NCBI GenBank assembly: GCA_043809645.1
Contig: JBDROX010000003.1
Coordinates: forward strand, 1-58,379
Reading direction: 5' to 3'
DNA from: Candidatus Magasanikiibacteriota bacterium
Lineage (GTDB): Bacteria; Patescibacteriota; Patescibacteriia; Magasanikbacterales; UBA922
Length of the DNA: 58,379 nt
The position numbers and the translations under genes are program-made. Shown here piece after piece: positions 10,995 to 52,381 of this stretch. How positions within the stretch are numbered: the stretch's first letter is position 1; each line of letters opens with the position of its first letter. The notes beneath the pieces are model-generated. The model was not told the DNA's origin and did no database searches. It worked only from the letters and a program-made list of their open reading frames with translations.

Positions 10995-11067
10995 GGGCTC
11001 GTAGCTTAGCTGGTAGAGCGCCGCCCTTGCACGGCGGAGGTCAGGAGTTCGATCCTCCTCGGGTCCA
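10995..11067 (+). tRNA. tRNA-Ala(TGC)
   Basis: Cloverleaf; anticodon arm CCGCC-CT TGC AC-GGCGG; G3:U70. Confidence 0.95.
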
Positions 11068-11134
11068 CAAATATTCAATGATGAGCCGATGAATATTTTG
11101 GGTTTTGTCCATTGCTCATTGTTATTTGTTTGGA

Positions 11135-11206
11135 GCCGAGGTAGCTCAGTGGTAGAGCAGAGGACTGAAAATCCTCGTGTCGAGAGTTCAATTCTCTCCC
11201 TCGGCA
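11135..11206 (+). tRNA. tRNA-Phe(GAA)
   Basis: GCCGAGG/CCTCGGC acceptor; GAGGA-CT GAA AA-TCCTC. Confidence 0.95.
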
Positions 11207-11211
11207 CATAG

Positions 11212-11285
11212 CGGAGTGTAGCTCAGTTGGCTAGAGCACCTGGTTTGGGACCAGGGGGTCGAAGGTTCGAGTCCTTTCACTCCGA
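11212..11285 (+). tRNA. tRNA-Pro(TGG)
   Basis: CGGAGTG/CACTCCG acceptor; CCTGG-TT TGG GA-CCAGG. Confidence 0.95.
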
Positions 11286-11356
11286 CAGATAGACCATTTT
11301 GGTCTATTTTTGTATATTGATTTTTCTGTTTAGTTTGAGTATTATGATGGGGTACT

Positions 11357-11430
11357 GCTCACATAGCTCAGTTGGTTAGAGCGCTGCATTCACATTGCAG
11401 AGGTCCCTGGTTCGAATCCTGGTGTGAGTA
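11357..11430 (+). tRNA. tRNA-Val(CAC)
   Basis: GCTCACA/TGTGAGT acceptor; CTGCA-TT CAC AT-TGCAG; one T-stem mismatch. Confidence 0.85.
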
Positions 11431-11454
11431 CTTTTTTCCGTTTTGTAGTGAAGG

Positions 11455-11527
11455 CGGGCTATGGCGCAGTTGGTAGCGCGCGTCGTTCGGGACGACGAGG
11501 CCGGCAGTTCGAGTCTGCCTAGCCCGA
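11455..11527 (+). tRNA. tRNA-Pro(CGG)
   Basis: CGGGCTA/TAGCCCG acceptor; CGTCG-TT CGG GA-CGACG. Confidence 0.95.
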
Positions 11528-11534
11528 CGAAAAC

Positions 11535-11611
11535 GGGCCTGTAGCTCAGTTGGTTAGAGCGCTGCATTCGCATTGCAGAGGTCAGGAGTTCGACTCTCCT
11601 CAGGTCCACCA
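11535..11611 (+). tRNA. tRNA-Ala(CGC), CCA encoded
   Basis: GGGCCTG/CAGGTCC with G3:U70; CTGCA-TT CGC AT-TGCAG. Confidence 0.95.
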
Positions 11612-14596: not shown

Positions 14597-14669
14597 AGCG
14601 GTAGACCAGATTCGAACTGGCGACCTCTTCCTTGGCAAGGAAGCGTTCTACCAACTGAACTACTACCGC
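14597..14669 (-). tRNA. tRNA-Gly(GCC)
   Basis: Reverse complement GCGGTAG...CTTCC-TT GCC AA-GGAAG...CTACCGCT. Confidence 0.95.
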
Positions 14670-14676
14670 GCCCTAG

Positions 14677-14750
14677 TTGCGGGGGCCGGATTTGAACCGG
14701 CGACCTTCGGGTTATGAGCCCGACGAGCTTCCAGACTGCTCTACCCCGCG
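14677..14750 (-). tRNA. Initiator tRNA-fMet(CAT)
   Basis: C1-A72 mismatch, three G-C pairs in the anticodon stem, CAT anticodon. Confidence 0.95.
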
Positions 14751-14806
14751 ATATGAATTGTGTCTGAGTCGGAGTATACGTGACTCACAGGAATAATTCA
14801 ACCCTG

Positions 14807-14878
14807 AGCGGATGACCGGAATCGAACCGGCATCATCGGCTTGGAAGGCCGAGATAATAACCATTATACGACATCCGC
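14807..14878 (-). tRNA. tRNA-Gly(TCC)
   Basis: Reverse complement GCGGATG...TCGGC-CT TCC AA-GCCGA...CATCCGCT. Confidence 0.93.
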
Positions 14879-29586: not shown

Positions 29587-29811
29587 ATGCAGAAAATTAA
29601 CCTTACAATTATTCCTCGTTCTTCCAAAAACGAAATAATACAGCTCTCTGAGGACTCATATAAAATCAAACTCACTGCAGCACCGGTCGATGGAGAGGCA
29701 AATAAAAAGCTTATTGAATTTCTTAACAAAGAATGGAAAGTATCAAAATCGAAGATCACGATTGTGAAGGGTTTGAAAAGTAGGAATAAAGTTATAAAAA
29801 TTGAAGACTAA
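29587..29811 (+). CDS. DUF167/YggU family protein
   Basis: PRSSK, TAAPVDGEANKKLIEFL, IVKGLKSRNK. Confidence 0.9.
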   Translation: MQKINLTIIPRSSKNEIIQLSEDSYKIKLTAAPVDGEANKKLIEFLNKEWKVSKSKITIVKGLKSRNKVIKIED

Positions 29812-30821
29812 ATATAATTATTATTGAAACAAAAAAACACCATTCGTTGGTGTTTTTTTGACTGTCCCCAAACGCTCGCATTGCTGAGTGAACCCGAGTA
29901 TTCGGGGTCAGGAGGCTCGCTGTTCGTCTTCAGGTGGATCTTGTCGTTCGCATAGGCGATATACAGACTTCCACCAGATGGCGTGAATGGCGCTCCACCT
30001 GTCTGTGTCTCTCCATCCGCATACCCCTCCGTGCAGATAAACCCGGTGCGGTACGCATATGAATTATGGCCGTAATCGTACCAGTATGTACACAACCCCT
30101 TGTGGCATGCGCCATCATAGTTTGACTCGAAGTCTGCCGCCGGACAGTCGTCATCCGTAACACAGGACTTGCATCCCGGGGTAGAGGTGCTTACACAACC
30201 ATCCTTGTCCAGGTAGTCCTGCGTGCACGGGTTCCCATCATCACAGTCCTCTGAAACACCGCACGAAAAAAAGTCACACTCCCCTTCGATGCAAACCCCA
30301 AGATCCAGACCTGGCGACTGCTCACCCTCCTGGCACGGCGTGTAGTCTGGCGTGTCGACTTTGGCACACGTCCCTCCGCCATCGGACTTGTAGATCCAGC
30401 AGAAATCCTTTGTACACGGATTGCCAACGTCGCACTCAACATCTTCCGTGCAAGGCACCTGCGACGGTGCCTCGACACACTGGTCTCCGTCGCAGGTGCC
30501 GGTTGGGCACTGCCCGGACGCGTTGTTGGCCACCTTGCACACGCCGTCCGAGCCACACCCGTAGTAGATATGGCTCCAGACGCCGTCCTGGCACGTCAGC
30601 TTCTCGAGCTGCTCGCAGTTGCATTCTGGCTGAGGACTGGCATCCTGCGCCACGTCTGCACTGTCAGGACCCATGTCCTGACCGACATCCTCCTCGACCT
30701 GCCCCTCGTCCGCGTAGAGCGAAGTATCGGACGACATGCCGCCTGACACCATGCCCTGGCGGCCATCCTCCAAACAGGAGACCAAGAGCATCGATGCGAT
30801 CACGATCATAAACTTCTTCAT
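29808..30821 (-). CDS. GC-rich cysteine-rich lipoprotein, 3' end probably truncated
   Basis: MKKFMIVIASMLLVSC lipobox; CDVGNPCTKD and CDDGNPCTQD repeats; last codons read through an AT-rich terminator. Confidence 0.75.
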   Translation of the reverse strand: MKKFMIVIASMLLVSCLEDGRQGMVSGGMSSDTSLYADEGQVEEDVGQDMGPDSADVAQDASPQPECNCEQLEKLTCQDGVWSHIYYGCGSDGVCKVANNASGQCPTGTCDGDQCVEAPSQVPCTEDVECDVGNPCTKDFCWIYKSDGGGTCAKVDTPDYTPCQEGEQSPGLDLGVCIEGECDFFSCGVSEDCDDGNPCTQDYLDKDGCVSTSTPGCKSCVTDDDCPAADFESNYDGACHKGLCTYWYDYGHNSYAYRTGFICTEGYADGETQTGGAPFTPSGGSLYIAYANDKIHLKTNSEPPDPEYSGSLSNASVWGQSKKHQRMVFFCFNNNYI

Positions 30822-30956
30822 TGTTGTGTCCTTTCCCACTTTTTGGCTCGCACCACGGCAGTGAGAACCGATTAATAGTTTGCTAATTTCTCCCTATTAT
30901 TATCCATTTCTCGACCAAACAACAACAGAGAGAAATCTGTTTGTAAAGAACCGCGT

Positions 30957-45965: not shown

Positions 45966-47552
45966 TTATTCCTTTGCAATACTCCACAACATGTCGAACT
46001 GTTTTCGGAAGCCGGAAATAATATTGGGATTTTCATAAACTGTAGAAAAGGCCTTGGGTCCAAAATATGTAATTGTAGCCTTGTTCTTGAATATGTGAAT
46101 CTCGACTGGGTTTTCGTATGTGTCTGGAAGGTACTTGGTGTGTATGTATTGGAATGTCGGATCCCCCACAGAGCTCACCTGCTTTTCAAAGTACTCCCTG
46201 TGTTTTTCATAGAGAATGATATGCTTATGAATTTTGTGCTCGATGAGAAATTTGTTGTGGTAGAGAAAAAGATCGTCGACTCTCTTCTTTACCTCTTCGT
46301 CACCTGGCTTTCCATACCCAGCCCCAATAACATATTCAGCTCCACCGTCGCTTATCAAGTCATCCAAGACTGTTTTATTGAATAGTCCTTCCACATTTTT
46401 CCATCCTGTAAGAGTTTGAACTTCTTGGTTCCAAAGATAATCAAAATAATTGAGATATCCTTTGGCCATTTCTTCGTTCTCAATTATATTCACGTATCCA
46501 CCATCCTTCCAAATAATGTTTGCAACTTTGTTTCCATATATGCAAATAACGTGCGGACTTGAGACAGATTCAGGAAGGTACTTATAAAAATATCCAGGTT
46601 CGTTTCTGATGCTCGAGTGGCTTTCTGTTCCAGAGAGGTCTGCCCCCGCATCGACGAGGTCGTGCCATTCAATTCCTTTCTTTCTTCTCACTTCTTTGCA
46701 TTTCTGTGCCTCTTCTGGAAAGTACACATCCATACTGTCTTTGCTTCCGCCAATCCAGTACACTTTGTCGACTGTACCAATGTCCTCCAAGAATATGCGT
46801 ATTCCCTTTTCTCCGCGCAAATTTTGTGATTTATCTTCCCAAAGAAATTCAAAATATTCTTTGTAACTTTCGACCAGATCATGATTGAAAATTTCTATGA
46901 TGGTATATGGCTCTGTAAAAATAAAAATGAGCACTCTATCTTTGATAATATTAATCTCACTATCTTTTCTGGCAATGTCAGGGATCAGTTTGAATTCTGT
47001 AAGGCCCTCGGTCTCTTTGATGTATGTGCTCTCTTTTTCATCCAAGTATCCGCTCACACCTTTCATGTGAATCCCATGCTCCACTTGGAGTTTGGCAAAC
47101 AAATCAATATTTTTTTTGCCATTTATTTCAAAAAAATTTGGGGACAGACCAAGCACATACCAGTAATCATCTTTGGCAAGTGTGGAATAGAGTTCCAGAT
47201 ATTTTTTTTGAATTTCTTCTTTTCCTTCGTACACAATCACTTCTTGCGAAGATACTCTATGTTTTGCAAGGAGTTCTTCAATAATATCTTCTGCAAGTTT
47301 TTTCTTTTCTTCCACTTCACCCATGATTCGCGCTGGATCAAGGGCAACATACACAGCCACACCCCTTTTTGTATTTTTTGAGACCAATTTCTTCTCTTCT
47401 AGCAGGTCGAGGGCAGTGTATACCAGGTTTCTGTGCATACCAGTTCTCCGTACGAGTTCCCCTGCTTTGGCCTCTCCTAGCTCAAAAAGTGTCAAATATA
47501 CGGTCGAAAGGTTCTTTGTAAACCCTAGTTTTTGTAAATCCTTAATAAGCAT
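45966..47552 (-). CDS. TrmB-family regulator with three tandem C-terminal effector-type domains
   Basis: LQKLGF...VY.TL...HRNLVY.AL..L.EK.LV HTH; three repeats ending YFEFLW, YFDYLW, QFDMLW. Confidence 0.88.
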   Translation of the reverse strand: MLIKDLQKLGFTKNLSTVYLTLFELGEAKAGELVRRTGMHRNLVYTALDLLEEKKLVSKNTKRGVAVYVALDPARIMGEVEEKKKLAEDIIEELLAKHRVSSQEVIVYEGKEEIQKKYLELYSTLAKDDYWYVLGLSPNFFEINGKKNIDLFAKLQVEHGIHMKGVSGYLDEKESTYIKETEGLTEFKLIPDIARKDSEINIIKDRVLIFIFTEPYTIIEIFNHDLVESYKEYFEFLWEDKSQNLRGEKGIRIFLEDIGTVDKVYWIGGSKDSMDVYFPEEAQKCKEVRRKKGIEWHDLVDAGADLSGTESHSSIRNEPGYFYKYLPESVSSPHVICIYGNKVANIIWKDGGYVNIIENEEMAKGYLNYFDYLWNQEVQTLTGWKNVEGLFNKTVLDDLISDGGAEYVIGAGYGKPGDEEVKKRVDDLFLYHNKFLIEHKIHKHIILYEKHREYFEKQVSSVGDPTFQYIHTKYLPDTYENPVEIHIFKNKATITYFGPKAFSTVYENPNIISGFRKQFDMLWSIAKE

Positions 47553-47564
47553 AGTTTTCTATTT

Positions 47565-47686
47565 TGTCACAATGTGTATGACAGGTATGTATAAATTTGC
47601 TCTATATTAAGCTATATATATCATATAGAAAGTGTCACCACATGTCAAGTGACAGACTTGACAAAGAACTGAAAACACGCTATAAT
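47565..47686. promoter_or_regulatory. Back-to-back promoters with two palindromic operator candidates
   Basis: TGTCA-N9-TGACA (47565-47583), TGTCAC-N10-GTGACA (47633-47654); minus TTGACA-17-TATGAT (47648-47620); plus TTGACA-17-TATAAT (47658-47686). Confidence 0.75.
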
Positions 47687-47809
47687 TTGCTGTTATCAAC
47701 ATAACAAATCGTTCATTACAGTCTAGAAGTGAGAGATCGATCCGGCTCTCATGGCAACCACAGGTGTGGAAGCCAGCAGTAACCGGATTGAGATCTTCAG
47801 GAGGAAGTC

Positions 47810-48430
47810 ATGATCCGTTCGATCGTTATCATTCTCGTCGTTCTTTCCGTCAATTTCCTCACCGCGGACGCGAAGGCTCAGTATGGCTTCGTCGAGTTCC
47901 AGGCTCAGGCCGAGAGTGGCCTGTTCGTGCCGACGGTCGACCTCCTTGTCGGCGGAACGATCGCAAAAACCCGGTTCGGCACCCTCGGGGTCGAGGGGTT
48001 TGCTCTCGTATCCGACGGCTGGGCCGAGCTCTACGCTGGACCGACCTGGACCATCATCCCTGAGCTCACCATCGGACTCTTCGCCGGCATGGAGACTGGT
48101 CCAGAGACGCTTCCGCGTTTCGCGACCACAGTCATCGTAAACTACGAGGAGTTCAGCTTCTTCGGTGCTGTGGAGTTCAATACTCGCAGCTTCGATGGCG
48201 AGCAGACCGGCCTATGGTATCGCCTCGTCGCCACCGGCTCGGCCACGAGTTGGCTGAAGGTCGGCGTGGAGTGGCGACGGTTCGCGGGTCTCGGTCCACA
48301 CGTTGCCGTCAAGATCCCAGAGACCCCCGTGGGTCTCTGGGTTAGCTGGATGCCGCTCGAGCCCGAAGGACTCGACGGCAACATCGTGAACCTCGACCGT
48401 TTCCTCCTAGGAGGGAAGGTCGGGTTCTGA
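47810..48430 (+). CDS. Secreted beta-strand-rich protein resembling an outer-membrane beta-barrel
   Basis: AGGAGG RBS; signal peptide ending AKA; alternating amphipathic strands rich in G/W/F/Y; ends FLLGGKVGF. Confidence 0.75.
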   Translation: MIRSIVIILVVLSVNFLTADAKAQYGFVEFQAQAESGLFVPTVDLLVGGTIAKTRFGTLGVEGFALVSDGWAELYAGPTWTIIPELTIGLFAGMETGPETLPRFATTVIVNYEEFSFFGAVEFNTRSFDGEQTGLWYRLVATGSATSWLKVGVEWRRFAGLGPHVAVKIPETPVGLWVSWMPLEPEGLDGNIVNLDRFLLGGKVGF

Positions 48431-48658
48431 AACACAGGCCTGGTGTGAGCCTTTGATCACATTACCCCATGTTAGCTAGTAGTTGAACTCGAACACTAGC
48501 ATGGGGACATCAACTCTTTTTATCACATGGTGTGGTGGAAGGCGAGAGAATAAAAAAACACCGCTTGATGCGGGTTTTTTTGTATATTGACAAAGGCATG
48601 CTTTTATGTTTATCATATGTGCACGTTCAAATGGGTCAAAGGCCCTAGGAGGGAATCA

Positions 48659-49369
48659 ATGAAACCAGTATTTTGCGTGCTCATTGCAGCGCTGCTGCTG
48701 CTAATCGGATCTTGCTCGGACAACACAAGTGCTGATCAGGATCTCAGGATCGTCTGCGTGACGACCAGTGACTGCCCCAGCGGAATTTGCGTGTTCGAAG
48801 GTACTGTTGGCCACTGCTCGGAGTGTCCACCGTGCGGAGACGGTGAGCGCTGCAACGCTCAGACAGGCAACTGCGAGAAGATCTTGCCGTGCGGCGCGTT
48901 GTTCGAATGTCCTTTGGGACAACTTTGCAGTTCTGGGGAATGTGTGCTCGGCTGTGGCGTGACCACGCTGGAGGGCTGCTGCGCGCTGCCTGCTGACCCT
49001 CCTGACGAGCCTGATGCAGAAGACTCTTCCGATGCCATTGAAGAAGATGTGGTCCCAGTGCCCGCGGCGCGAGTGGATCCTCTTTGCGGCGGATCACTGC
49101 CGCTGGTGTGCATCGAAGGTCGGTATTGTGCAGTGCAGGACAACTGTGCGAGCGACGACGACTGCCCGCTCGGGTATGAGTGCTCGGACACGCTCCAGTG
49201 TCTACTCCTCATCATCGGCGATTCACCGGTCGATCCAGGTCCGACATCGCCGTGCCTGTGCTCAGAGGCAGGCTGCGACCAGAACAACTGCGTGCAGTGC
49301 CTCAAGCCAAATGACTGTGGTCCTCCTCAGCACTGGCAGTGTCAGGAGAACCTCTGCAAGGAGAAGTAG
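48659..49369 (+). CDS. GC-rich cysteine-rich lipoprotein
   Basis: AGGAGG RBS; LLLLIGSC lipobox; repeats CVTTSDCPSGIC, CASDDDCPLGYEC, CLKPNDC. Confidence 0.8.
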   Translation: MKPVFCVLIAALLLLIGSCSDNTSADQDLRIVCVTTSDCPSGICVFEGTVGHCSECPPCGDGERCNAQTGNCEKILPCGALFECPLGQLCSSGECVLGCGVTTLEGCCALPADPPDEPDAEDSSDAIEEDVVPVPAARVDPLCGGSLPLVCIEGRYCAVQDNCASDDDCPLGYECSDTLQCLLLIIGDSPVDPGPTSPCLCSEAGCDQNNCVQCLKPNDCGPPQHWQCQENLCKEK

Positions 49370-49562
49370 AGGCAAGGCGCAGGTCACGATATTTCGGTGT
49401 AAGATGCACCATTCAAGTCTGTCTAACTCTGTGTCATACCGATACAGGGTCGTGGTGTTGGGGAGCCACGAGACGATAAATCCCATTCCTACTATTGTTT
49501 TTACTTTTGTAAAAGTAATTGAGGAAACAAAAAATCCCGATTCAGTCGGGACTTTTGTTTTT

Positions 49563-49826
49563 TTATTTTGTTTCTTTCGCAACCCTTTTCATGAGTCGAG
49601 AGATTTTTCTGGAAGCAGTATTCTTCTTGATCACACCAGCCTTGGCTGCTTTGTCCAGAGTTTTCTGAACAGCAGTAGTCAGTGGTTTGAGTTCCTTTTC
49701 TCCAGCAGCAAGTGCTTTTGTTACATTCTTGATTGCATCTTTGTATGCATTTTTCTTTTCAAGATTTCTTTCAGCACGTTTCTTTGCCTGGCGAACATCT
49801 TTTATTGATGCTTTTTTAATTGGCAT
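49563..49826 (-). CDS. rpsT: 30S ribosomal protein S20
   Basis: MPIKKASIK, DKAAKAGVIKKNTASRKISRL. Confidence 0.97.
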   Translation of the reverse strand: MPIKKASIKDVRQAKKRAERNLEKKNAYKDAIKNVTKALAAGEKELKPLTTAVQKTLDKAAKAGVIKKNTASRKISRLMKRVAKETK

Positions 49827-49942: not shown

Positions 49943-51061
49943 TTAGTCTTCAAGACGCGGTTTATCGAGTTGAAGTGGTTCTATTTCACGTTCTCCGTCT
50001 GTGATACGCACGACATCTTTATCTATCTTCCCAAGTTCTTTGTAGGCAGTGTTGTAATGATTGACTGTAGTTGACATACTTCCTCCGAGTTTCTTCATAT
50101 AGTCTTCGTATGCTTTCACATGCTTGCCTAGCATCTCAACGTTCTTCTGGATTCCCTTTGCGCTTTCCTCAATCTTGAGAGCTCGAAGTCCCTGCAACAC
50201 TGTTTGGAGATATGCAGCAAACGTTGTTGGGGAGACGATAATTACTTTCTTTTCTTTGAATGCATACTCAATGAGGCTTCTGGTGTTGACCTTCACAGCC
50301 CCAACTTCATTTACTAATAAATCATAATAGATAGCTTCGGCCGGAATAAACATGAAGGCAAATTCAAGTGTTCCCTCTTTCATTTTAATATATTTGGATG
50401 TTTCATCAATTCTTTTTTTCAAATCATTTTTAAAATCTTTTTCAAGTACAGCTTTTTTCTCTTCATCTTTTTCCTCGAGAATCCTGTTGTAATTATCCAG
50501 AGAAAACTTTGCATCTACTGGGATGAGACCATCTTTTGTCTTCACAACTGCATCAACAATATCTCCATCCGCGAATTTATATTGAAATTCAAAGGCTGTT
50601 GGTGGCAAAATATTTTCTAATACCAGTTGCAAACCAGCTTCACCAAGGTTCCCTCTGTGTTTCTGGTTTGTAAGAACTCTTTCCAGATTTGAAAGCTGTT
50701 CAGAAAATCCAATCACTTGCTGATTTGTTTTATCAAGGCTTGTGAGTTTCTCTGTAATGTCAGCAATCATCTTTGTGCTTTGTCCAGTCACCCCCTGCAT
50801 CATCTTTGTGCTTTGGCCGAATTGTTCTTGAATCGTACGATTGAGAGATGACTGTGTATCGTTCATGGATTTTTGCGTGTCGGTCATCTTCTGATCCAAA
50901 GTTCGTGTCAATTCCTGAATCTGATTTTGCATCATCACAAATTGATTTTGCTCACCTTCTTTTGGCGTTTGACTTTCCTGAAATTTTTTGTAGAGTAAAA
51001 AAAGAAGTATAAGTGCTCCAACAAGTAAGATTGACAGGACGATGAGGAGTACATTTGTCAT
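49943..51061 (-). CDS. rmuC: DNA recombination protein RmuC
   Basis: N-terminal TM and coiled coil; RGNLGE, VDAVV, PVDAKF, FMFIPAEAIY, IVSPTT. Confidence 0.93.
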   Translation of the reverse strand: MTNVLLIVLSILLVGALILLFLLYKKFQESQTPKEGEQNQFVMMQNQIQELTRTLDQKMTDTQKSMNDTQSSLNRTIQEQFGQSTKMMQGVTGQSTKMIADITEKLTSLDKTNQQVIGFSEQLSNLERVLTNQKHRGNLGEAGLQLVLENILPPTAFEFQYKFADGDIVDAVVKTKDGLIPVDAKFSLDNYNRILEEKDEEKKAVLEKDFKNDLKKRIDETSKYIKMKEGTLEFAFMFIPAEAIYYDLLVNEVGAVKVNTRSLIEYAFKEKKVIIVSPTTFAAYLQTVLQGLRALKIEESAKGIQKNVEMLGKHVKAYEDYMKKLGGSMSTTVNHYNTAYKELGKIDKDVVRITDGEREIEPLQLDKPRLED

Positions 51062-51221
51062 AGCCTTTGCAGTTATTTTAGCCAGGGTATTATAGCCATA
51101 AAAAACAAATAACACCAATATGGTGTATTGCCGGGTATTTGTTATGCGCCCCCGGTTGGCGCTCTGTGCGTGTATCAGCGAGTCGGTAGTGTAACCGACC
51201 GCTAGAGCTTGTGAGCTCACG

Positions 51222-51631: not shown

Positions 51632-52381
51632 ATGCACACAGACACTCTGCTCAATCTCGGGCTTTCTCAAAACGAGGCAAAGATCTATGAGACCATGCTT
51701 CAAGAAGGCGAAACGACCGTGAGTGAGATCTCTAACAAAAGTAAAATTCATAGACGAAATATTTATGATTCAATGAATCGCCTTATGGAAAAAGGACTTG
51801 TTTTTCAGGTCATTGGAAGGGGAGATAATCTGTTTCGACCAGTGGAGCCAAATAAGCTGATGGAACTGGTGGATGAAAAACGAGAGCTTCTCGAGAAAAT
51901 CATGCCTGACCTGCTCTCTGAGTATGAAGCAAAGCCACATCTGGAGGCTGCATACATCTATAAGGGTATTGAAGGTTTTAAGAACTATCTCAGAGATATT
52001 TTGGCAAATGAAGAAGAAGCCTATTTTATAGGTGCAAAAGGCGCTTGGTTTGATCCTCGCCTGAAGACATTTTTGGATAGTTTTCTTATTAAAGCGAAAA
52101 AAAGAGGAATAAAGTATCGTCACCTCTTTGATTTTGAGGTCAAGGATCAGATTCCGTATGTACCAGAAGAGGTTGGAAAGCCTTATAAATATCTCCCAAA
52201 AAAGTATTCCACACCTTCTATGGTTGACATCTTTGGTGATCATGTGGTTTCATTCACAGGCGCGGGGCTTGCGAAGATAAGTGATGATATTACTATCTTT
52301 GTAAATATATCTCGCCCTCTCGCTACTAGTTATAAGACATGGTTTCAATTTATGTGGGATTATTGCCCGAAGGTTGAGTAA
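51632..52381 (+). CDS. TrmB-family transcriptional regulator
   Basis: LGLSQNEAKIY, IHRRNIYD...L.EKGLV, YKGIEG, ends WFQFMW. Confidence 0.9.
   Translation: MHTDTLLNLGLSQNEAKIYETMLQEGETTVSEISNKSKIHRRNIYDSMNRLMEKGLVFQVIGRGDNLFRPVEPNKLMELVDEKRELLEKIMPDLLSEYEAKPHLEAAYIYKGIEGFKNYLRDILANEEEAYFIGAKGAWFDPRLKTFLDSFLIKAKKRGIKYRHLFDFEVKDQIPYVPEEVGKPYKYLPKKYSTPSMVDIFGDHVVSFTGAGLAKISDDITIFVNISRPLATSYKTWFQFMWDYCPKVE

Follow-up and report, generated by a model that had tools for sequence, protein, structure and literature searches.

A predicted outer-membrane-type beta-barrel family paired with a TrmB-like regulator in candidate phyla radiation genomes where no outer-membrane assembly machinery was found

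Introduction

Outer-membrane-type beta-barrels are taken as a signature of two-membrane cells and as dependent on BamA of the beta-barrel assembly machinery (BAM). Closest in shape to the protein described here are the monomeric sugar-acid channels of the KdgM/NanC/VhGalP class (PF06178; PDB: 8xua, 2wjr, 4pr7, 4fqe), which have 12 strands, a signal peptide, and a C-terminal aromatic residue; KdgM and NanC are controlled by a dedicated local regulator. Also similar are PcoB (7pge) and the COG4313 channel of Pseudomonas putida (4rl8), both 12-stranded channels for small solutes or hydrophobic compounds, and the beta-domains of intimin, invasin, and autotransporters (5g26, 4e1s, 4e1t, 3qq2, 4mee, 3aeh, 1uyo), which are translocation domains that carry a fused passenger, with a linker plugging the barrel. 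Designed transmembrane barrels, in turn, fold into detergent or bilayers without BAM. Here we analyzed a 58,379-bp stretch of DNA (hereafter the window), a whole contig (C3) from the 44-contig, 953,884-bp genome of a Candidatus Magasanikiibacteriota bacterium, a member of the candidate phyla radiation (CPR). One of its open reading frames (ORFs), at 47810..48430 on the forward strand, encodes a 206-aa protein that is predicted with high confidence to be an outer-membrane-type beta-barrel whose lumen is charged and whose outer belt faces lipid.

The fold is a known one, but the family is new, and neither its lineage nor its context is one in which such a fold would be expected. The family occurs in a phylum in which no Omp85 protein scored over the Pfam cut-off among 401 genomes, so it bears on the true nature of the CPR envelope, on how episymbiotic CPR bacteria acquire nutrients from their hosts, and on whether natural barrels assemble without BAM. 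The module is small, comprising one regulator, two operators, and one 183-residue barrel. No paper describing outer-membrane-type barrels in CPR was found in a literature search from which subscription papers and supplements were excluded, and a large barrel census gave no mention of the phylum by term search (PMC10629564).

Results

Predicted Structure of the Barrel Protein

Supplied with an alignment of 59 sequences, AlphaFold2 modeled the protein as 12 strands with a predicted local distance difference test score (pLDDT) of 94.8 and a predicted template modeling score of 0.83. The pLDDT of the five models ranged from 94.1 to 94.9, and a run with 4 sequences only gave 72.3. A VIA-align search of the model against representative structures returned 24 chains with Z of at least 8, the matches spanning barrel residues ~21 to 206. 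The top match was VhGalP (8xua; Z 16.2, 171 residues aligned, root-mean-square deviation (rmsd) 2.9), followed by NanC (2wjr; Z 15.0), the intimin barrel (14.8), PcoB (14.1), the COG4313 channel (14.0), and autotransporter barrels (13.8). Every chain matching at Z of at least 10 was an integral membrane barrel, natural or designed. Foldseek gave 34 PDB matches at E ≤ 0.001; the matches listed were mostly natural outer-membrane barrels, including OmpG, KdgM-family porins, the intimin and invasin barrels, and general porins, together with two designed transmembrane barrels. Structure prediction and fold search, with the pLDDT of 94.8 and Z-scores up to 16.2, support the outer-membrane-type barrel proposed at this position from the DNA sequence alone (the original prediction). 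We infer that the barrel is closed because solved closed barrels align with it over its full length (171 of ~183 residues, rmsd 2.9).

The two faces of the strands differ sharply across the 59-sequence alignment, with one face 72% hydrophobic and 14% polar and the other 31% and 52%, respectively. The dyad contrast of the strands reached 0.411, compared with 0.179 ± 0.037 in within-strand shuffles, and none of 2000 shuffles attained the observed value. The conserved charged residues Glu-29, Arg-103, Glu-122, and Arg-156 are located on the polar face of the model, and Glu-186 lies in the longer of the two loops. Nine of the eleven strand connections are 2 to 5 residues long. The only long ones, at residues 125 to 135 and 181 to 197, both emerge in the AlphaFold2 model at the barrel end that faces away from the termini, which is the arrangement of canonical outer-membrane proteins.

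The beta-signal consensus has Gly at position −5, a hydrophobic residue at −2, and an aromatic or hydrophobic last residue. The C-terminus of the barrel protein, FLLGGKVGF, fits this pattern through G201-G-K-V204-G-F206, and Gly-201 is retained in 97% of the 59 sequences. The exception is position −7, where a polar residue is expected and Leu is found. Among 146 full-length relatives the last residue is Phe in 79, Leu in 27, and Ile in 7.

The precursor begins with MIRSIVIILVVLSVNFLTADAKA, followed by QYGF. Its MIR start, hydrophobic run, and ADAKA preceding Q have the features of a Sec signal peptide cleaved at an A-x-A site, and the protein, being free of Cys, has no lipobox. In the 59-sequence alignment Ala is kept at −1 in 93% and at −3 in 73% of sequences, and 129 of the 146 full-length family members fit a crude signal-peptide pattern. 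The original prediction had anticipated several of these features. Its cleavable signal peptide agrees with the sequence of the precursor and with the pattern in its relatives, its estimate of roughly 10 to 12 strands with alternating hydrophobic residues compares with the 12 modeled strands and a dyad contrast above all shuffles, and its many aromatics and terminal Phe are found as 26 aromatic residues in the 183-residue mature chain and as the final residue of the sequence.

Compared with the described systems, the barrel is shaped like the KdgM/NanC class and would work in a similar way; by sequence it is not a member of that class. Size and strand number agree, the structural alignments cover 165 to 171 residues (Z 15.0–16.2, rmsd 2.9–3.1), and a signal peptide, a C-terminal aromatic residue, and a dedicated local regulator are shared features. 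In contrast, identity in these structural alignments is 7 to 9%, the protein has no PF06178 match at E ≤ 1 (nor was one found among 59 + 77 relatives), its loops are far shorter, its conserved lumen residues are mixed acidic and basic, and its genome showed neither BAM nor an outer-membrane marker. The intimin/invasin and autotransporter beta-domains have the same size and topology (Z 11.8–14.8, residues 21 to 206), but here the barrel of 183 residues stands alone, free of a passenger. PcoB and the COG4313 channel match in strand number, but no sequence relationship to either was found and both reside in true outer membranes. The designed 12-strand barrel 9fdg (Foldseek E 6.0e-5, VIA-align Z 11.5) and TMB10_163 (8uzl) resemble the protein in their minimal hairpins on both rims, and their BAM-free folding is, by analogy, the behavior that would be required here. 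The protein differs from them in being natural and conserved, with two longer loops and a conserved charged lumen.

Distribution of the Family

The barrel protein had no match at E ≤ 1 in Pfam or NCBIfam, and a profile search of PDB sequences gave nothing relevant, with two chance matches at E 1.3. Gcw_chp/TorF (PF09694) was likewise matched neither by the window protein nor by the 59 + 77 relatives. A word-indexed search disclosed three close relatives (76, 64, and 51% identity), all from short contigs. In a phmmer search of 1.84 billion cluster representatives, thresholds of E ≤ 1e-3, 1e-10, and 1e-30 retained 194, 66, and 4 sequences, respectively, which with few exceptions are 175 to 245 residues long. 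By these sequence matches the barrel is a member of an uncatalogued family of 194 clusters.

Within the phylum, 12 of 401 sampled genomes carry the family, including that of the window (G000), and it was also found in one single-contig genome. Carriers are few even among relatives of the window's genome (one of three genomes in its own taxonomic family, and one of six and one of one in two families of the same order), which indicates that the protein family is patchy and accessory. Some genomes hold more than one copy, three in G068 and two in G401.

A motif scan of 185,579 species gave 20 pattern matches, of which 8 were confirmed, all in records of 0.9 to 1.3 Mb; a first species scan with another family pattern had given 21 matches and no confirmed one. 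Five of the eight confirmed records are titled CPR or unclassified "bacterium", and the titles of named records with relatives include Patescibacteria, Magasanikbacteria, Saccharibacteria, and Berkelbacteria. The other three (L014, L015, and L016; CAZPYM01, CAZMEQ01, and CAZHTA01) are titled "uncultured Gammaproteobacteria bacterium", are 0.9 to 1.3 Mb in size, and lack Omp85. For the one of these three that was tested for its phylum, the 61 sampled genomes of that phylum span 0.5 to 2.0 Mb. Because Omp85 is absent and the phylum is one of small genomes, we read these titles as mislabeled CPR. The NCBI titles of some such assemblies thus appear to be wrong, and taxon labels of the kind used in the ESM Atlas are unreliable for the same reason.

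The nearest ESM Atlas entries are unnamed clusters of 176 to 207 aa, with feature scores of 0.95 to 0.97 and TM (template modeling) scores of 0.73 to 0.79 to the Atlas model. The window protein itself has no match to DUF6733 (PF20507). Only one of the 77 distant relatives, P0066, matched that family, below the Pfam cut-off (E 0.0067, 16.4 bits against 27), and the Atlas taxa rest on few labeled members. In a FastTree phylogeny of 175 rows, sequences placed in CPR genomes make up 15 of the 87 rows in one half and 14 of the 88 in the other. Many forks of this tree are open and its branches are long, and it was used only for this spread.

Relatives were absent from 72,556 plasmids and 50,697 phages by tblastn, P0066 also had no plasmid match, and viral contigs gave no confirmed relative. 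Carriage of the barrel by mobile elements was rejected on these grounds. E. coli K-12 gave no family match, which shows little. In every placement made so far, the family lies in CPR genomes of ~1 Mb.

Absence of Outer-Membrane Machinery

The window's genome is estimated at 94.7% complete and 4.2% contaminated. Omp85/BamA was found in none of 16 carrier genomes tested, among them the window's genome and the single-contig genome. Across the 401 genomes of the phylum, where listed genomes measure 0.5 to 2.0 Mb, none had Omp85 over the Pfam cut-off, with one weak match at 18 bits; 7 of 14 control genomes matched in these searches. LpxC, LptD, OEP/TolC, Secretin, and OMP_b-brl were absent from the window's genome and from G308, G334, G071, and G401, with control genomes positive. 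The original prediction had taken the genome for CPR without BAM or lipopolysaccharide (LPS) genes, and the negative search for bamA and lptD agrees with it; the genome did not prove to be that of a diderm with BAM and LPS.

By genomic context the barrel differs from BAM substrates, whose genomes encode Omp85/BamA and specify an outer membrane. Since no Omp85/BAM, LPS, or other outer-membrane part was found to be encoded, the barrel would have to insert unaided into whatever lipid layer receives it. Small natural and designed barrels fold in vitro without BAM. This behavior and the nearly loop-free architecture of the model make BAM-free folding plausible here.

Base Composition and mRNA Folding

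The barrel gene stands out by its base composition. It is 61% GC in a genome of 41% GC, whose contigs range from 0.36 to 0.45, and in 200-nt windows its GC is 0.585 to 0.66 (47800–48399) compared with 0.315 to 0.455 upstream (46800–47699). The G+C fraction at third codon positions (GC3) is 0.76, which ranks second among the 793 ORFs in the genome that are 120 aa or longer (mean 0.372, sd 0.074). Two compositional claims of the original prediction hold: the count of 39 G+C in the 60 nt at 48001–48060 is exact, and the sequence upstream of the gene is indeed lower in GC.

This excess is common to the family. In all 37 barrel rows, obtained by scanning the loci with the family profile and the regulator N-terminus, the barrel exceeds the rest of its locus in GC. 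In L015 the values are 0.61 and 0.36, in L038 0.59 and 0.31, and in L018 0.55 and 0.31; L009, L013, and L019 show the least excess (+0.02). Regulators co-inherited with the barrels are host-like in composition, that of L015 having a GC3 of 0.29. The excess in every row, together with the co-inheritance of AT-rich regulators and operators, does not support recent diderm capture.

The barrel coding sequence (CDS) of the window folds more strongly than 20 dinucleotide shuffles (z −4.9). With 40 shuffles per gene, the same was observed in six of seven barrel genes (z −3.2 to −4.6), the other being L014 (z −0.8), and all five genes compared with codon-order shuffles folded better (z −2.2 to −3.7). 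No excess folding was seen in the regulator CDS (z −0.9) or in the adjacent GC-rich lipoprotein CDS (z +0.3). Barrel codons start with G in 41% of cases and end with C in 48%. By these sequence measures, persistent GC-richness with a self-folding mRNA is a property of the gene family and not a mark of recent import, a caution against taking every GC-rich islet of a CPR genome for a recent arrival.

The Divergent TrmB-Like Regulator

Divergent from the barrel gene lies a gene for a TrmB-like transcription regulator, and the intergenic spacer holds two back-to-back promoters and two operator-like palindromes (Table 1). TrmB regulators are typically sugar-responsive. As in the Thermococcales TrmB proteins (PF01978), the N-terminus is a winged helix-turn-helix, and palindromes resembling binding sites stand beside a divergent uptake-type gene. 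Unlike those proteins, the regulator has a C-terminal part of 450 residues without a Pfam family match, and its relatives occur in multiple copies in CPR genomes. The motif F(D/E)xLW appears three times in this part (YFEFLWEDK, YFDYLWNQE, and QFDMLWSIA), and short forms of the regulator, of ~250 aa, end in a single such motif; the sequence suggests that the C-terminal domain is triplicated.

Table 1. Features of the barrel–regulator module in the window.
Feature	Position	Strand	Evidence
TrmB-like transcription regulator, 528 aa	45966..47552	−	PF01978, E 8.7e-11 (42 bits; cut-off 25.6), residues 6–73
Operator-like palindrome O1, TGTCAC-N7-ATGACA, just upstream of the regulator start codon	47565..47583		Half-sites invariant in 4 loci
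Promoter-like site of the regulator, TTGACA-17-TATGAT (11/12)	47620..47648	−	−10 block TATCATA (+ strand) invariant in 4 loci
Operator-like palindrome O2, TGTCAC-N10-GTGACA	47633..47654		Half-sites invariant in 4 loci; also listed as a minus-strand hairpin
Promoter of the barrel gene, TTGACA-17-TATAAT (12/12)	47658..47686	+	−35 invariant, −10 nearly so (4 loci)
5′ leader, ~120 nt, with ribosome-binding site AGGAGG at 47799–47804	47687..47809	+	Sequence
Putative signal peptide, 23 aa (MIRSIVIILVVLSVNFLTADAKA, then Q)	47810..47878	+	Read from sequence
Predicted mature 183-aa, 12-stranded beta-barrel and stop codon	47879..48430	+	AlphaFold2, VIA-align, Foldseek, dyad analysis

O2 overlaps the −35 element of the regulator and abuts that of the barrel. 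The spacer was aligned across four loci with the long regulator form (the window, L016, L018, and L038) and has a mean identity of 76%, with the barrel −35 and the regulator −10 invariant; the barrels of the same loci are 36 to 61% identical and their regulators 35 to 69%. Loci with the short regulator form carry another palindrome, TGTTG-N9-CAACA, common to L014 and L017. With its full match to a sigma-70-type promoter and its AGGAGG site, the barrel gene has host-style, AT-rich expression signals. For its 5′ untranslated region, no Rfam riboswitch or leader family scored at the gathering threshold, the 11 tRNAs elsewhere being the only such matches in the window, and a search of 47500–49600 gave only sub-threshold matches at chance level. 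An origin as an integron cassette was rejected, as the attC core ATWTGGGTG has no match in the window and the flanks showed no notable repeats.

A divergent TrmB-like ORF lies within ~1 kb of the barrel in 20 of the 37 rows, or in 16 of 32 after removal of duplicates (L037, L040, L041, L047, and L051), several of the remaining rows being at contig ends where the neighbor is not visible. The closest regulator, from the Magasanikbacteria record L018, is 63% identical to that of the window, but the L018 barrel is only 41% identical; faster evolution or exchange of the barrel may therefore also play a part. The regulator start, spacer, and barrel of a relative stand in the same order on a 1305-nt contig of an independent groundwater run, and a 237-nt contig of another run is identical to 47587–47823. 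These contigs indicate that the regulator–barrel junction is real and the module old.

Other arrangements of TrmB-like genes were observed. In L006 (3046–3366), one such gene is flanked by two barrel genes of the family. Across the TrmB-like gene from the barrel, L016:996–1514 encodes a secreted 172-aa protein (GC 0.63, GC3 0.84) with a near-identical signal peptide, and in L027 (769–2584) the divergent partner of a TrmB-like gene encodes a secreted protein of 159 aa (L027:2105–2584) that is GC-richer and has Phe as its last residue. The products of L016:996–1514 and L027:2105–2584 were rejected as barrel-family members by hhalign (19% and 12% probability, respectively). Such sequences raise the idea that, in CPR, small beta-rich proteins of several kinds may be secreted under the control of TrmB-like regulators. 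The window itself contains a second short TrmB-like gene, a 256-aa frame at 51647–52360 (+), downstream of and divergent from an RmuC gene at 49943–51220.

Discussion

The protein is probably a native, regulated membrane barrel of its CPR genome. In the mechanism that we propose, the regulator would bind the two palindromes over the back-to-back promoters, and a small-molecule cue would release or activate these promoters. The 206-aa precursor would be exported by Sec and cut after AKA, as its sequence suggests, and the 183-aa chain would fold, following the model, so that its outer belt is hydrophobic and its lumen, containing Glu-29, Arg-103, Glu-122, Arg-156, and Glu-186, is polar. The barrel would then insert unaided in a lipid layer outside the cell's own membrane, preferably the host surface membrane at the attachment site, and could serve as a small solute channel or an anchor for a symbiont that imports most of its building blocks. 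The host surface membrane, which the original prediction had also offered as a possible destination, is the one that we favor, with rather less than even confidence. The explanation as a whole, joining a native regulated barrel, BAM-free assembly, and delivery to the host membrane, is likewise held tentatively.

Several points weigh against this explanation. The barrel is a prediction whose closure, pore width, and aromatic girdles are presumed, as are the protein's production and final location. To enter the outer membrane of a host from outside, the barrel would need to pass an LPS leaflet, and we know of no CPR precedent for it. TrmB-like genes are multi-copy in relatives, up to seven per genome, and stand beside varied kinds of genes; the pairing with the barrel by itself is little guide to the signal. 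The excess mRNA structure could simply follow, as a by-product, from the use of codons that start with G and end with C for antiparallel strands. With regard to the distribution, the motif of the species-wide scan is present in only 19 of 153 listed representatives, and the profile search covered one phylum. The nearest unnamed ESM Atlas clusters are labeled Acidobacteriota, Pseudomonadota, or Bacteroidota, each by few labeled members, and the FastTree clade of P0055, P0066, and P0128 contains no CPR-placed sequence. On account of these labels and of this clade with its sub-threshold DUF6733 match, a diderm branch of the family may exist.

The barrel could instead reside in an outer layer of lipid or lipoprotein that belongs to the CPR cell and has gone unrecognized. 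At least some Patescibacteria would then be more than simple monoderms, and the family would be a leftover or reinvention of outer-membrane proteins, serving the cell as its own porin. In its fold, its belt, and its C-terminal G-x-x-V-x-F the protein matches resident outer-membrane proteins, and the family is conserved, regulated, spread across many CPR lineages, and present in 2 to 3 copies in some genomes. However, carriage by 12 of 401 genomes is too low for a basic envelope component, which speaks against a core envelope part, and the carriers searched had no Omp85, LPS, TolC-type, secretin, or general outer-membrane protein families; we consider this location unlikely, though the strongest of the alternatives. 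The failure to find insertion machinery would also suit a barrel that is secreted, or sits in the wall zone, and serves to bind or shuttle a sugar or a hydrophobic ligand, with self-association or the cell wall covering its greasy surface. CPR bacteria depend on scavenged lipids, and the structural matches include 12-stranded hydrophobic-compound channels and enzymes (the COG4313 channel, LpxR, and OMPLA). Against such a protein, an outward face that is 72% hydrophobic family-wide would be hard to keep soluble, a 12-strand barrel is too wide for a packed hydrophobic core, and the matches at Z of at least 10 are all integral membrane barrels, which makes this alternative quite improbable in our judgment.

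Recent horizontal capture from a GC-rich diderm, possibly without function in the present genome, was one of the origins offered by the original prediction, and this part of it did not stand. The GC of 0.61, the GC3 far above the genome mean, and codon use like that of a GC-rich organism would fit capture, as would the diderm labels of the nearest Atlas clusters and the distant version (E 6.7e-19) in the same-family genome G308 compared with a closer one (6.1e-63) in G334 of the same order. But none of the 37 rows is without the GC excess, the AT-rich promoter, operators, and regulator have been conserved with the barrel as the barrels diverged to 36 to 61% identity, no relative was found in plasmids, phages, viral contigs, or E. 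coli K-12, and every placed relative is in a CPR genome. Capture is thus very improbable. Hardly any weight attaches to a diderm fragment joined into the CPR contig by assembly or binning: the GC jump at both gene ends is sharp and the 44-contig assembly carries its estimated contamination, but the regulator–barrel arrangement recurs in many independent genomes and in metagenome contigs of up to 413 kb, the family is present in a single-contig genome, and the two independent contigs described above span the regulator–spacer–barrel order in a relative and match the window over 47587–47823.

Returning to the native, regulated membrane barrel, we venture a broader and somewhat doubtful proposal. 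Self-assembling, BAM-free barrels may be typical of the phylum, triggered by a cue via the TrmB-like regulator and planted in the host surface membrane, or in an unseen outer lipid layer of the symbiont, as a conduit by which these bacteria, with their few transporters and limited biosynthesis, would draw metabolites. The folded, GC-rich mRNA might then have been selected to pace the synthesis of a protein dangerous to the cell's own membrane.

Other Features of the Window

Directly downstream of the barrel gene, a second GC-rich gene (0.57–0.62; 48659–49369, +) with its own promoter-like site (48587–48616) encodes a Cys/Asp-rich lipoprotein with the lipobox LIGSC and no Pfam family over the cut-off. 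In the other loci listed, this gene is absent from the neighborhood of the barrel. Further GC-rich islets (GC 0.56–0.60, GC3 0.66–0.73) lie at 29808–30839 (−) in the window and at C7:9133–10671 and C31:12387–13427 elsewhere in the genome. These three islets encode Cys/Asp-rich lipoproteins with D-G-N-P-C-T-x-D-like repeats, and from their sequences the islet lipoproteins look like a genome-scattered family of foreign-looking surface proteins.

Three GC-rich ORFs on other contigs of the genome (C24:23603–24193, C34:33833–34423, and C28:44089–46095) share the N-terminal motif EFW..GRI.SANFEAFLDNP, and the open frame on C28 continues into reverse-transcriptase-like sequence; these ORFs are probably target genes of diversity-generating retroelements. 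Rfam detected 11 tRNAs in the window, including clusters of six at 10995–11608 (+) and three at 14597–14878 (−).

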